Source of the DNA: a virus
Taxonomy: Duplodnaviria > Heunggongvirae > Uroviricota > Caudoviricetes
Virus record (IMG/VR): IMGVR_UViG_2671180758_000004
Length of the DNA: 5,835 nt
Direction: 5' to 3' (one strand)
Part shown: piece after piece, positions 1,273 to 5,372 of the stretch
Layout: each line of letters opens with the position of its first letter
How positions within the stretch are numbered: position 1 is the stretch's first letter
Program-made: the position numbers and the translations under genes
The notes under the pieces: model-generated
Seen by the model: the letters and a program-made list of their open reading frames with translations, nothing else
Told to the model about the DNA's origin: nothing
Database searches by the model: none

Positions 1273-1457
1273 TGCCAGCATCCTTTTTGTATCGGACGTA
1301 AACGGGCCAGCATTGAAAGAATGCATATTTTATTTAATAGCTCCCGTTCGTGTTTTCTCTTGTTAATGGCATCTTCAGTAAATACAGGGTTACTGATAGT
1401 GACACCAATTTCAAAACAACCTTCAGACGTATTAACGTTTGGTAATAACGTTTCCAT
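1269..1457 (-). CDS. dicB: DicB cell-division inhibitor (62 aa)
   Basis: Translation METLLPNVNTSEGCFEIGVTISNPVFTEDAINKRKHERELLNKICILSMLARLRPIQKGCWQ closely matches my recollection of E. coli DicB. GAGGA RBS 7 nt upstream of ATG 1457..1455. The 97-aa track ORF is an upstream in-frame extension with no RBS. Confidence 0.9.
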   Translation of the reverse strand: METLLPNVNTSEGCFEIGVTISNPVFTEDAINKRKHERELLNKICILSMLARLRPIQKGCWQ

Positions 1458-1626
1458 TATCGCGTCCTCAACAATGAATTTTGTGATGTGGTGCCTGGTG
1501 CCTCCAGGTGACGTTAACCAGTTAACAATTAACGCCGGATACAGAGAATCCACCCATAACACTGTTTTTGGTTTTAACTGTTCCGCGTGCGCTCAGCCGC
1601 ATTCACCGCATCACAAAATTCACTTT

Positions 1627-1684
1627 AAAAACGGCGGCAGAGCAGTCACGGAGTAAAACTGATACCGCCAAACGTCACCAGAAA
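1627..1684 (-). ncRNA. dicF: DicF antisense sRNA, copy 2, complete with intrinsic terminator (GC-rich hairpin then U-tract = complement of 1627..1631)
   Basis: Minus strand 1684..1627 reads UUUCUGGUGACGUUUGGCGGUAUCAGUUUUACUCCGUGACUGCUCUGCCGCCGUUUUU. It lies between a ~320-bp leader and dicB, as expected for DicF. The exact 5' end (RNase E processed in the known system) is approximate. Confidence 0.8.
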
Positions 1685-2007
1685 ATTGATAACAGAGGGC
1701 GTTGCAGCGGGGTTGTCACTTAAGCGTATGGTCAACCTGACAACCCGGTGTCCTCAACGGGGGAAGGAATAACCCCGCCATACTTACCGCCGCGCCATTT
1801 CGCGGATTGCCACAACCGGAAGCGCACGGTCGACGAAAATTTAACGACAGGCTATCTATGAACCAGCTACCTCGCCGTGCGCTTTCGCGTTATGGTCTGA
1901 CTTTTCAGGGAAATATCCTTTCAGTAAACTGTCAGTGCCGGATGCTCACCCGTGTCCGGCGCACGCACTCCACCTCACCCGTGGAGAACTCCTTAATCAC
2001 CAACCCT
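1633..2007. repeat. Direct repeat A2: DicF plus upstream precursor/leader region (copy of 1..375)
   Basis: See A1. The right end of A2 abuts the RBS of the plus-strand 91-aa gene instead of a ydfC 3' end. Confidence 0.9.
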
Positions 2008-2019
2008 CAGGAGGGTGAA

Positions 2020-2295
2020 ATGTCGACTGAAAATGATGAAATCATTAACTCCCTGATACGCCAGATTAATAATTTTGATAAAGCATTGCAACATGCTGCG
2101 GCGCGTAGTGATATAACTCTTTTAGCAATTTCATTTCTTGCATCTGTTATGGATAAAAATGAAGTCGTACGACAGAGTCTTGTTGATTATATCGACTCGC
2201 TTCAACCCGGCACTTTCAATCATGAGAGCTTCAATCATGAGAAAGAGCATGTTAAGTCTGTAATTAATTCTCTTATTTTGAATCAAAAGAATTAA
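2020..2295 (+). CDS. Hypothetical acidic small protein (91 aa), AT-rich cargo gene; function unknown
   Basis: ATG at 2020 preceded by a strong RBS, AGGAGG at 2009..2014 with 5-nt spacing. ORF ends TAA at 2293..2295 and is followed by an intrinsic terminator at 2323..2350. Local GC content is visibly lower than in flanking repeats. One short hydrophobic stretch (ITLLAISFLASVM), no clear transmembrane pair. Confidence 0.7.
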   Translation: MSTENDEIINSLIRQINNFDKALQHAAARSDITLLAISFLASVMDKNEVVRQSLVDYIDSLQPGTFNHESFNHEKEHVKSVINSLILNQKN

Positions 2296-2593
2296 TGCTT
2301 TTTGTTGCAAAGTAATTTTCAAGGGGTTCTATTCGAATCCCTTTCTTTTTCATTAACAAGCCAAACCCCTTATCAATGATGTCCATTAGATCCAGGAAGT
2401 ATTTTTCATGTAAATCCTGGTTATCAGAGAGCTGCTTCTCTTCGTACAGCCCGATAAAGGCTCGGCGTACGTTACCGGATATATTGTCGATGGTTTCTTT
2501 TTCTACGGTACTCAGGTCAAGAGTCGCCAGTTGAGAGCGAACCACATTCGATGCCATTTCCTGGAATGGTACTGGTAAATCTTTAAATTCCAT
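2273..2593 (-). CDS. Hypothetical acidic protein (106 aa from ATG 2593; 110 aa if started at ATG 2605 overlapping the ydfA-like stop as TGATG); function unknown
   Basis: Long ORF in AT-rich DNA immediately downstream of ydfA-like copy 2. A GAGG RBS lies 6 nt before ATG 2593. Its 3' end overlaps the convergent 91-aa gene by 23 bp. No family recognised by eye. Confidence 0.6.
   Translation of the reverse strand: MEFKDLPVPFQEMASNVVRSQLATLDLSTVEKETIDNISGNVRRAFIGLYEEKQLSDNQDLHEKYFLDLMDIIDKGFGLLMKKKGIRIEPLENYFATKSINSFDSK
2323..2350 (+). terminator. Rho-independent terminator for the plus-strand 91-aa gene
   Basis: Stem GGGGTTC (2323..2329) pairs with GAATCCC (2335..2341) as 7 bp including one G-U pair, with a 5-nt loop, followed by TTTCTTTTT (2342..2350). 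On the minus strand the hairpin would be followed by A's, so it is unidirectional. Confidence 0.6.
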
Positions 2594-2604
2594 CGTCAAC
2601 CTCA

Positions 2605-2838
2605 TCAGTCAGTGTTTCTGGTTAACCAGCGACGCGCGCCAGCTTCAGTTTTAAACGTTTTGCTTCTGGTATATGTCATCGCGGTAAACGTGCCGTCCTG
2701 GTTGGGAAACACGCCGCATACCAGAGATTCGTTGTTGCCAAGCTCGATAGTATCCATGCTGACCTCATTTCCCCTTAACGCCGGGGTAGCGGAACAAAAA
2801 CCTGCTGCATAGTTATTAAAGTTGAACCCTGCCGTCAT
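2605..2838 (-). CDS. ydfA: YdfA/YdaF-family (DUF1391-like) small protein, copy 2; 77 aa from ATG 2838, or 50 aa from internal ATG 2757
   Basis: Paralogue of 772..1008 with 6 amino-acid differences plus a divergent C-terminus. First gene downstream of the predicted early-left promoter, the position ydfA occupies relative to dicA in Qin. Confidence 0.7.
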   Translation of the reverse strand: MTAGFNFNNYAAGFCSATPALRGNEVSMDTIELGNNESLVCGVFPNQDGTFTAMTYTRSKTFKTEAGARRWLTRNTD

Positions 2839-3054: not shown

Positions 3055-3474
3055 TTAAGAGGCTTTTTGTTTTTTCTTTCGTGCTAACTCTTCGTAAATT
3101 GCATTGTACTTCTGTTTTTTCTCTTCAAGAGTTTTTAAAAGTTCATCTGTCTCACTGTCAGGGAGCTCGTCCAGAAGGTCAATGATGATTTTTTGTCTTG
3201 GATTTAACTCCTGATAGAAACGTACCTGTCCACTTTCTTCTGTATCCTCTCCCAAAAGATAGGTTGGTGTTGTTCCTATTAGTGTTGCTAATTCCCTTAA
3301 TTTCTCCCGGCGAGGAATTGTTTCGCCATTAAACCATTTGCTAACCGCTTTTGGTGTTAATTTCATTCGACGGGCAATTTCTGCCTGCCTTCCATGTTGT
3401 TCATAACCAGCATTTTCACAGGCTAGCGCAAGCCTACTGGCGAACTCTTTACGCGCTTTATCTTCATGAACCAT
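3055..3474 (-). CDS. Prophage repressor, XRE-family HTH (RacR/DicA-like, 139 aa), no S24 peptidase domain apparent
   Basis: N-terminal HTH-like segment (QAEIARRMKLTPKAVSKWFNGETIP), charged C-terminal helix, AT-rich codon usage. Divergent from a Cro-like gene and upstream of a dicB-type operon. Weak RBS, consistent with repressor genes. Confidence 0.85.
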   Translation of the reverse strand: MVHEDKARKEFASRLALACENAGYEQHGRQAEIARRMKLTPKAVSKWFNGETIPRREKLRELATLIGTTPTYLLGEDTEESGQVRFYQELNPRQKIIIDLLDELPDSETDELLKTLEEKKQKYNAIYEELARKKKQKAS

Positions 3475-4301: not shown

Positions 4302-5372
4302 ATGGCTAACGCCTGGCTCAGATTATGGCATGACATGCCAAATGACCCTAAGTGGCGAACAATTGCCAGGGTGTCAGGGCAGCCAATTGCAACAGTGATG
4401 GCAGTGTATATCCACCTCCTGGTGAGCGCGTCACGAAATGTCACGCGAGGTCACATTGATGTCACGACAGAAGATTTGGCAAGTGCGCTCGACGTGACAG
4501 AAGAGGTAATTGATTCAATTTTGCAGACGATGCAGGGGCGGGTACTTGATGGTGATTTAATCACTGGATGGGAAAAACGCCAGGTGCTTAAAGAGGACAA
4601 CGGCAATATTTCGCAAACCGCAAAATCTCCTGCAGAGCGCAAGAGGGCGCAGCGAGAGAGGGAAAGAAAGCGGGAACAAAATGGCGATTGTCACGGCGCG
4701 TCACGAAATGTCACGCACATGTCACGACGAGTCACGACAGATAAAGATACAGATAAAGATACAGATCAAGAAGATCAAAACACTATGGTCCATGGCGTAA
4801 AAAACGCCACGAACCAGGCAGGGGATGTTCAGACCGTCAATCCTGGTCAGCCAGCAGGCACGACACCGGAAGCCGATTCAGCGTATGCGCTGAAAGCCGA
4901 TTCGGGCGCTGTGCAGCAGGTGATGACCGCAAGGCCGGAGCAATCACACCAACTGCAGCAGCCCGAAGCCGATTCCGCCATTCAGCGGGAAGCCGATCGG
5001 GTAGTCCCGGAAAACACCGGTCAGTCTGTGGGACGAGTGGATTATCCGGATGTGTTCGAACAGGTCTGGCGGGAGTACCCGTTGCGTGCCGGAGCAAACC
5101 CGAAGAAATCCGCTTTCAGTGCCTGGAAGGCCAGATTACGCGAGGGGGTGCCACCAGAGGCCATGCTGGATGGCGTGAGGCGTTACGCAAGATACTTGGC
5201 GGCTACCGGGAAAGCGGGAACGGAATTTGTTCAGCGAGCGACGACGTTTTTTGGACCGGACCGGAATTTTGAGAACCCCTGGTTTCTCCCGGTAAGCGGC
5301 ACGAACAACCAGCGTTGTGTGAATCATATTACTGAACCGGATAACGAAATTCCGCCGGGCTTCAGGGGGTAA
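4302..5372 (+). CDS. ydaU: YdaU-like phage replication initiator (lambda O-like role), 356 aa, with a low-complexity central linker
   Basis: ATG 4302 with AAGAGG RBS (4291..4296). Two iteron arrays and an AT-rich tract lie inside the coding sequence, as for ori-lambda inside gene O. Central region is charged and repetitive (ERKRAQRERERKRE, DKDTDKDTD, PEADSA repeats). Confidence 0.8.
   Translation: MANAWLRLWHDMPNDPKWRTIARVSGQPIATVMAVYIHLLVSASRNVTRGHIDVTTEDLASALDVTEEVIDSILQTMQGRVLDGDLITGWEKRQVLKEDNGNISQTAKSPAERKRAQRERERKREQNGDCHGASRNVTHMSRRVTTDKDTDKDTDQEDQNTMVHGVKNATNQAGDVQTVNPGQPAGTTPEADSAYALKADSGAVQQVMTARPEQSHQLQQPEADSAIQREADRVVPENTGQSVGRVDYPDVFEQVWREYPLRAGANPKKSAFSAWKARLREGVPPEAMLDGVRRYARYLAATGKAGTEFVQRATTFFGPDRNFENPWFLPVSGTNNQRCVNHITEPDNEIPPGFRG
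4426..4466 (+). repeat. Iteron array 1: four GTCAC(G/A) repeats in helical phase (4430, 4440, 4450, 4461), plus an inverted copy at 4493..4498
   Basis: Direct repeats spaced 10-11 bp. The 21-mer GCGCGTCACGAAATGTCACGC (4426..4446) is repeated exactly at 4696..4716. Confidence 0.8.
4690..4790 (+). other. Putative prophage origin of replication: iteron array 2 (five GTCACG repeats at 4690, 4700, 4710, 4721, 4731) followed by an AT-rich tract with tandem GATAAAGATACA x2 and two GATC sites
   Basis: Perfect 10/10/11/10-bp phasing of five identical hexamers. Adjacent AT-rich tract with GATAAAGATACA at 4740..4751 and 4752..4763 and GATC at 4764..4767 and 4773..4776. Architecture parallels ori-lambda inside the initiator gene. 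Confidence 0.7.

Follow-up and report, generated by a model that had tools for sequence, protein, structure and literature searches.

We propose, with a probability of roughly 0.6, that the 91-amino-acid gene at positions 2020–2295 (plus strand) of a 5,835-nucleotide stretch of prophage DNA (IMG/VR record IMGVR_UViG_2671180758_000004, Caudoviricetes; hereafter the window) is an accessory cassette of the kind called a moron, lying antisense to the dicBF operon at an insertion hot spot, and that the 106-amino-acid gene converging on it from the minus strand (2273–2593) is an ordinary modular gene of that operon rather than the second half of a two-gene system. The window comes from a Qin/Rac-type lambdoid prophage and represents its immunity and early region, in which the operon runs on the minus strand from a DicA-like repressor towards DicF, a small RNA (sRNA), and the division inhibitor DicB. 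An earlier sequence-only reading had singled out the pair as a candidate two-gene accessory system; the convergent open reading frames (ORFs), the 23 bp shared by their 3′ ends (2273–2295) and the AGGAGG ribosome-binding site, with the ATG of the 91-amino-acid gene 5 nt downstream of it, are all where that reading had placed them. Its description of the genes as undescribed agrees with the literature searched (by RefSeq protein identifiers, DUF1391, and the dicB operon or its hot spot), in which no paper on, and no functional description of, either gene was found. Published work on the dicBF operon covers ydfABC, DicF, DicB and YdfD and the regulation by DicA, Rem, RNase III and RNase E, and mentions neither the 91- nor the 106-amino-acid gene (PMC5069750, PMC10448788).

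Unrelated cargo genes share one junction

ORFs of 91, 92, 77 and 73 amino acids, found in different prophages, all begin at an identical CCAACCCTCAGGAGGGTGAA-ATG, that is, at a conserved docking junction that includes the Shine–Dalgarno sequence and occupies the end of the dicF leader repeat (1999–2019, plus strand, in the window). These four ORFs are mutually unrelated, except for a weak similarity between the 91- and 92-amino-acid proteins, and the G+C content of all cargo genes lies between 0.35 and 0.38. The genes on which they converge share a conserved N-terminal domain (N-domain) and differ in their C-terminal tails (types A to D, described below). The 92-amino-acid gene converges on a type B gene of 133 amino acids with a 41-bp overlap in 54 of 57 loci, and is frameshifted in 5 of the 57, in which the 133-amino-acid gene is intact; the type C gene converges on the unrelated 77-amino-acid gene (phrog_10348) and the type D gene on a 100-amino-acid YmfI-family gene. 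Type A genes of 124 amino acids are paired with a 73-amino-acid gene (phrog_7249), a 148-amino-acid gene or nothing, and type B genes are also found with a 61-amino-acid gene or nothing, such that YmfI-family 100-amino-acid, 61-amino-acid and SLATT-like 148-amino-acid genes all occupy the same gap. Judged from these gene arrangements, the pattern fits a recombination or insertion hot spot with conserved boundaries, and not an obligate two-gene system. The suggestion of the sequence-only reading that the position is a site of small opposite-strand accessory genes is thus borne out by several unrelated cargo genes.

The full segment (that is, both genes) is present in 198 of 5,426 complete Escherichia coli genomes, in single-unit prophages and beside at least five different repressor types; E. 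coli 2017C-4173W12 (CP030768) and STLEFF_47 (CP058874) are among the strains with the pair. In about 750 further complete E. coli genomes the match is confined to the portion coding for the 106-amino-acid gene, relatives of which are there usually 124 amino acids long; in these, homology to the window ends at about 2277 (the stop codon of the 106-amino-acid gene) and no plus-strand gene follows the usual 124-amino-acid form. The expectation that the pair would prove to be a conserved unit is therefore upheld as to its recurrence, but not as to its being obligate, and the proposal of a two-gene system fares poorly, given that relatives of the 106-amino-acid gene occur without the 91-amino-acid gene, either alone or with other convergent genes (73 or 148 amino acids). 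Nor does the pair replace ydfB–ydfC, as had been claimed on the basis of the window. The order ydfA–ydfB–ydfC–106/91-amino-acid pair–dicF–dicB is found as one operon in strain HCP5S3_I2, in several assemblies and in loci L149, L150 and L158, and in O157:H7 the 124-amino-acid form comes after ydfA–ydfB–ydfC; as the pair coexists with ydfB–ydfC, it supplements the operon instead of standing in for these genes.

The base composition of the segment (G+C content 0.35–0.39) sets it apart from its surroundings. The 91-amino-acid gene has a G+C content of 0.348 and the tail-coding part of the 106-amino-acid gene one of 0.317, compared with 0.548 and 0.526 in the flanking repeats and 0.475 in the window as a whole, which is in line with the earlier view of an AT-rich, horizontally acquired segment and consistent with horizontally exchanged cargo. 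Lambdoid morons are, as Hendrix and colleagues are said to have described them, extra transcription units that are present or absent between otherwise collinear phages. The 91-amino-acid cassette resembles them in that some of the collinear prophages carry it and others lack it (with homology lost at about 2277 and at the leader junction), in being atypically AT-rich and in having its own Shine–Dalgarno sequence, its own terminator-like hairpin and an orientation independent of the operon. It differs from them in that a consensus scan found no promoter for the cassette in the leader, and in that its boundary lies inside the neighbouring gene, altering the C terminus of that gene. The cassette thus shares most of the features by which lambdoid morons are recognized.

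Two observations concern the junction and its other occupants. The junction sequence ACCCTCAGGAGGGT (1999–2019) is a near-palindrome that can fold to sequester the Shine–Dalgarno sequence (−9.0 kcal/mol for 1985–2040), and the ACCCTCAGGAGGGT hairpin would also form in the antisense operon transcript. The 148-amino-acid protein (phrog_6315) is encoded in locus L104 (2954–3400; IMGVR_UViG_2623620502_000005) on the opposite strand, between the 124-amino-acid N-domain gene and the dicF leader; judged by eye it has a hydrophobic stretch resembling two transmembrane helices, and it gives a weak match to the PADLOC model RTasSLATT (E = 0.002). From its sequence, it is possibly an abortive-infection-type effector at the hot spot.

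An orphan protein apparently under selection

The product of the cargo gene (RefSeq WP_000102678.1, hypothetical protein) is widespread. Among public assemblies, 8,667 blocks list exactly this protein, beside at least five different repressor types. When the window allele is compared with an allele of 79% identity, which retains the 91-codon ORF, the annotated frame gives a ratio of non-synonymous to synonymous substitution rates (dN/dS) of 0.28, lower than any of the other five frames; an intact ORF is present in 59 of 59 IMG/VR loci, including those with the 79%-identity allele. A 15-bp unit that is present twice, as ttcaatcatgagagc and ttcaatcatgagaaa (13 of 15 bases in common; 2219–2248, plus strand), encodes FNHES-FNHEK, and the copy number of this repeat (SFNHE) differs among loci (for example, three in L052 and one in L053), always in frame. 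The overlap with the minus-strand gene is 32 bp in the allele in which that gene has 109 codons, so the length of the overlap is not conserved. On the basis of these comparisons, we consider the ORF to be a real gene under purifying selection, and an orphan.

Relatives of the 91-amino-acid protein are few. Nothing significant was found in Pfam, NCBIfam, PADLOC or PDB sequences (the best match in PADLOC-DB v2 is to BrxA, at E = 0.014, which is too weak for membership), and the gene has no megablast or tblastn match in 50,697 phage records. A phmmer search of 1.84 billion (1.84e9) representative proteins returned only fragments of its own cluster and one weak match to a repeat in a 1,168-amino-acid protein (E = 6.1e-05, 35% identity). 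The only detectable relative is the 92-amino-acid prophage protein of phrog_18692 (for example, WP_000358771.1 in enterotoxigenic E. coli), with 28% identity over 86 residues (BLASTP, E = 9e-6); the match of the 91-amino-acid protein to the phrog_18692 hidden Markov model (HMM) is weak (E = 0.022), and the member was not recovered by the phmmer search of the whole library. The two genes are alike in length, begin at the same junction and Shine–Dalgarno sequence and likewise converge on an N-domain gene; the partner of the 92-amino-acid gene, unlike that of the 91-amino-acid gene, carries a tail unrelated to that of the 106-amino-acid protein.

Single-sequence AlphaFold2 (AF2) prediction gives four helices at low confidence (predicted local distance difference test (pLDDT) 61.6), and a Foldseek search of this model against PDB returned nothing at E ≤ 0.001. 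As had been noted from the sequence, both proteins are acidic and soluble-looking: the 91-amino-acid protein has an isoelectric point of 5.4 and the 106-amino-acid protein one of 5.0, and neither has a hydrophobic segment of transmembrane grade. The 91-amino-acid protein is thus predicted to be a soluble four-helix protein. It is encoded in approximately 3.6% of complete E. coli genomes and thousands of assemblies, yet is without predicted fold relatives.

Across the GC-rich dicF leader upstream of the gene, its frame is also free of stop codons (1807–2295, plus strand, in the window, with an ATG at 1858), which is why RefSeq and other gene callers sometimes give longer annotations of 145, 127, 119 or 117 amino acids (for example, WP_143363822.1, P0002). 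As this upstream frame is lost in the 92- and 77-amino-acid cassettes, the long forms are probably mis-annotations of the start site.

A modular gene of the dicBF operon

The minus-strand ORF extends over 2273–2605 (110 codons), and its true start is likely to be the ATG at 2593, which gives 106 amino acids, as in RefSeq (WP_001435739.1, hypothetical protein). The claim that neither protein matches a family does not hold for this one: it belongs to phrog_6937 (E = 6e-67), residues 1–106 aligning with profile positions 1–106 of 124. The homology and structure searches that the sequence-only reading had called for thus place the 106-amino-acid protein in phrog_6937, but provide no family or fold for the 91-amino-acid protein. 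The N-domain (residues 1–55; 2429–2593, minus strand) is a helical hairpin predicted confidently by AF2 from a small alignment (pLDDT approximately 85); confidence drops from residue 56 (means of 10-residue blocks fall from 68 to 34) and is below 50 for residues 79–106. The part beyond the hairpin is the variable type A tail (residues 56–106; 2273–2428, minus strand), which is AT-rich and shortened compared with the 124-amino-acid form. The first 55–66 residues of the protein also match phrog_1363, phrog_2151 and phrog_9419. Foldseek searches of the AF2 model against PDB and BFVD returned nothing at E ≤ 0.001, the best BFVD match being a stand-alone 52-residue protein of phage phi191; nothing significant was found in Pfam, NCBIfam or PDB sequences, and PADLOC-DB v2 gave no match.

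At least five unrelated tails are found joined to the N-domain across prophages: A (proteins of 106, 109, 124 and 126 amino acids), B (133), C (135), D (122) and a type found in Shiga toxin (Stx) phages (147). Fragments of these tails reappear in other mosaic proteins. Tails A and B have no similarity to each other, and homology between them was ruled out on this basis. We also rejected the possibility that the tails are read-through junk, as it is too improbable that four independent AT-rich cassettes should have open tails of 51–80 codons. The family of N-domain proteins in Stx and dicB-type prophages (phrog_6937; for example, gp25 of phage PA2) matches the 106-amino-acid protein over its full length, the window copy differing in being 18 residues shorter than the usual 124-amino-acid form. 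Of the scanned GTDB species representatives (each species being represented by one genome), Escherichia albertii was the only one with the N-domain, and matches to this domain in protein databases are almost all named E. coli, apart from one entry each from E. albertii, E. marmotae and Salmonella enterica. In all loci examined, the gene lies on the operon strand, between DUF1391 (with or without ydfB–ydfC) and dicF–dicB, and dN/dS between the window allele and the 79% allele is 0.24. The 106-amino-acid gene is a regular, modular member of the DicA-repressed dicBF (that is, early-left) operon.

A terminator-like hairpin within the convergent gene

A hairpin with the form of an intrinsic terminator lies downstream of the 91-amino-acid gene and, as the sequence-only reading had reported, within the coding sequence of the 106-amino-acid gene (hairpin and T tract at 2321–2353, plus strand; the minus strand encodes IRIEPLE here). 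Its 9-bp stem (2321–2343) is followed by TCTTTTTCAT, and RNAfold gives −14.0 kcal/mol. On the minus strand the hairpin lacks a T tract and should therefore not halt the operon transcript. The hairpin sequence is common to loci without the 91-amino-acid gene. The full 9-bp, strong stem is found in nearly all loci with a convergent gene of 91, 73 or 148 amino acids (L077 is the exception), and in 32 loci without a convergent gene two stem bases are changed from TT to AG (E to A in the protein), weakening the fold from −11.6 to −7.4 kcal/mol. That the strong stem tracks the convergent gene suggests, as far as such a comparison of loci can, a working terminator.

Comparison with known prophage systems

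The closest parallel in gene order is with the Rac prophage of K-12, in which racR, ydaG and ydaF (DUF1391) are followed by the opposite-strand gene sieB (4-bp 3′ overlap), the sRNA KilS and the division inhibitor kilR. As with the 91-amino-acid gene, sieB is an opposite-strand gene inside a repressor-controlled early-left operon that overlaps at its 3′ end with genes on the DUF1391 side and is followed by an sRNA and a division inhibitor (KilS and KilR in Rac, DicF and DicB in the window). Given this matching gene order, the slot of the 91-amino-acid gene is equivalent to that of sieB, and the sieB-like position assigned to it earlier is supported. The proteins themselves differ. The 91-amino-acid protein has no similarity to Rac SieB (BLASTP, E = 1.8) and no match to Pfam SieB, and homology to SieB was ruled out on these grounds; SieB has 162 amino acids, and the junction upstream of its gene differs from that of the 91-amino-acid gene. 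SieB is a membrane protein, and the 91-amino-acid protein is without a transmembrane-grade segment. Locus by locus, Rac (L217, 1906–2660: ydaF, sieB, KilS, kilR) parallels dicBF (ydfA, cargo, DicF, dicB) gene for gene, an arrangement that suggests a common ancestral architecture of an sRNA, a division inhibitor and an antisense slot.

The pair also resembles type II toxin–antitoxin systems, in that both consist of two small adjacent prophage genes near toxic functions. Unlike such systems, the 91- and 106-amino-acid genes are convergent rather than bicistronic and their co-occurrence is not obligate; no significant toxin or antitoxin domain was found in either protein in Pfam or NCBIfam. We rejected an obligate pair or toxin–antitoxin system on account of the relatives of the 106-amino-acid gene that lack the 91-amino-acid gene and of the convergent layout.

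Proposed model and alternative explanations

Assuming that the 91-amino-acid gene is indeed a moron-like cassette, we envision that AT-rich cassettes would dock antisense to the operon at the conserved junction where the dicF leader ends, which includes a strong ribosome-binding site, and that the type A tail would stop at residue 106 and not 124 because of the neighbouring cassette. The cargo gene would be transcribed rightwards in the lysogen while DicA holds the operon off, from a promoter that may lie in or upstream of the leader, and its transcript would end at 2321–2353, blocking antisense read-through into ydfA and dicA. Once the operon is derepressed, its transcription would presumably run across the cassette and interfere with expression of the cargo. 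By analogy with genes in such positions, the most likely class of function for the 91-amino-acid protein would be one that benefits the lysogen (that is, superinfection exclusion or another phage- or host-directed activity), an assignment that we make only tentatively.

Several observations weigh against this proposal. The 91-amino-acid gene is beside a type A gene of 106 or 109 amino acids in all 59 of its loci, and its 92-amino-acid homologue is paired with a type B gene at the frequency given above (54 of 57 loci); as the pairing of the 91-amino-acid gene with type A is fixed, cargo and tail may yet be functionally coupled. The loci compared for hairpin strength are phylogenetically non-independent, and the strong hairpin and the convergent gene may go together because the 32 loci are related by descent and not because of selection; in addition, terminator scans of the other cargo types found no recognizable hairpin. 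A consensus scan for plus-strand promoters in the leader (1684–2019) gave only sub-threshold matches, the nearest promoter match of the scan being at 1522–1549, approximately 470 nt upstream of the gene. As to a role in exclusion, neither protein matches a known defence family in PADLOC-DB v2.

The alternative that survives best is a cognate two-protein module (effector and regulator, or toxin and antidote), in which the variable tail binds the small convergent protein and the two are exchanged together. The exclusive pairings just described are what such a module would produce, convergent pairs with 3′ overlaps recur with four tail types, and the tails are probably coding, as they are long open frames in AT-rich DNA. 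Against this, the type A tail occurs with 91-, 73- or 148-amino-acid genes or with none, and the type B tail with 92- or 61-amino-acid genes or with none; approximately 750 genomes keep relatives of the 106-amino-acid gene without the 91-amino-acid gene, and the 133-amino-acid gene is retained in the five loci in which its 92-amino-acid neighbour is frameshifted. Tails A and B are dissimilar even though the 91- and 92-amino-acid proteins are homologous, no toxin, antitoxin or defence HMM matches, and the genes are not co-transcribed. We therefore regard a cognate module as unlikely.

A role at the level of RNA, in which leaky production of the toxic DicF and DicB is held down by convergent transcription and antisense RNA and the encoded protein is secondary, has some appeal, as the operon transcript must traverse approximately 330 nt of antisense cassette before DicF (1632–1683) and dicB are reached, and unrelated cargo genes are found at that antisense position. 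The toxicity of DicF and DicB, and the processing of dicBF mRNA by RNase III, an enzyme that cleaves double-stranded RNA (PMC5069750, PMC10448788), would both suit such a role. However, selection acts at the protein level (that is, the dN/dS of 0.28) and the length of the ORF is kept at 28% identity, which indicates that the 91-amino-acid protein matters; furthermore, most dicBF operons, including that of K-12 Qin, are without an antisense cassette, and the consensus scan found no promoter. We consider this explanation less probable than the two-protein module.

That the 91-amino-acid ORF is a decaying or non-functional remnant, annotated merely because it is open, is very improbable: although it has no family and no confident fold, homologue searches are near-empty, deletion derivatives are common and the related 92-amino-acid gene is frameshifted in 5 of 57 loci, the dN/dS is lowest in the annotated frame, the Shine–Dalgarno sequence is strong and conserved, the ORF is intact in every locus including the 79%-identity allele, with repeat indels in frame, and a 91-codon open frame at 35% G+C is unlikely to arise by chance.

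Returning to the antisense cassette, the gene as it stands is one more hypothetical prophage accessory gene and not a demonstrated system. The toxic genes of cryptic prophages have been studied with the dicBF operon as a model, its products DicF and DicB altering division, metabolism and phage sensitivity. If the cassette is confirmed, many E. coli prophages would carry an antisense, independently terminated gene across the path of dicBF, which would offer a place to seek functions expressed in the lysogen and possibly an additional layer of control over DicF and DicB. A more ambitious view, to which we assign little likelihood, is that the exchange slot, the 91/92-amino-acid family (or its unrelated replacements) and the variable tail together constitute a polymorphic two-component exclusion or abortive-infection module, the expression of which is switched by convergent dicBF transcription; if true, this prophage immunity-linked defence locus would be of a new kind.

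Layout of the window

On the minus strand, from right to left, the window encodes a DicA-like helix-turn-helix repressor (3055–3474), the ydfA-like DUF1391 gene that is first in the operon (2605–2757 by RefSeq coordinates; Pfam DUF1391, 9.3e-28), the stop of which adjoins the start region of the 106-amino-acid gene, then the 106-amino-acid gene itself and an approximately 380-bp leader repeat that contains the proximal DicF copy (1632–1683, minus strand; Rfam RF00039, 72.5 bits). On the same strand follow dicB, a DUF1482 (ydfD-like) gene, a second unit of ydfA–ydfB–ydfC, a leader and the distal DicF copy (1–51; Rfam, 69.6 bits). Past the repressor, cro-like, YdaT-like and replication genes lie on the plus strand.

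Two dicBF-operon units with two DicF copies are thus arranged in tandem (1–2010 and 784–2893), the distal one with ydfA–ydfB–ydfC and the proximal one with the ydfA-like gene and the 106/91-amino-acid pair, the direct repeats being 1–300 and 1633–1932 (100% identity) and 784–1063 and 2614–2893 (94%). The junction between the ydfD end and the ydfA leader (960–1180) is contiguous in none of the 5,426 complete E. coli genomes, and no genome among these matches the whole window collinearly; the tandem arrangement is therefore rare, from another source or an assembly artefact.

Minor observations concern other parts of the window. The mechanically called ydfA-like ORFs have 77–78 codons (2605–2838 and 772–1008, both on the minus strand); as Pfam DUF1391 and RefSeq span only the last 50–51 residues, the true starts of both are internal ATGs (at about 2757 in the proximal copy). 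STnc100 gives an Rfam match below threshold (1425–1634, minus strand; 35.3 bits, the gathering score being 47; E = 4.7e-05) that spans the dicF–dicB spacer and the start of dicB. Within the 358-amino-acid replication (replisome organizer) gene, TGTCACG occurs six times at 4439–4726 (0.7 copies expected by chance) and a tandem array of 10–11-bp units lies at 4689–4739; these copies and the array look like origin iterons.

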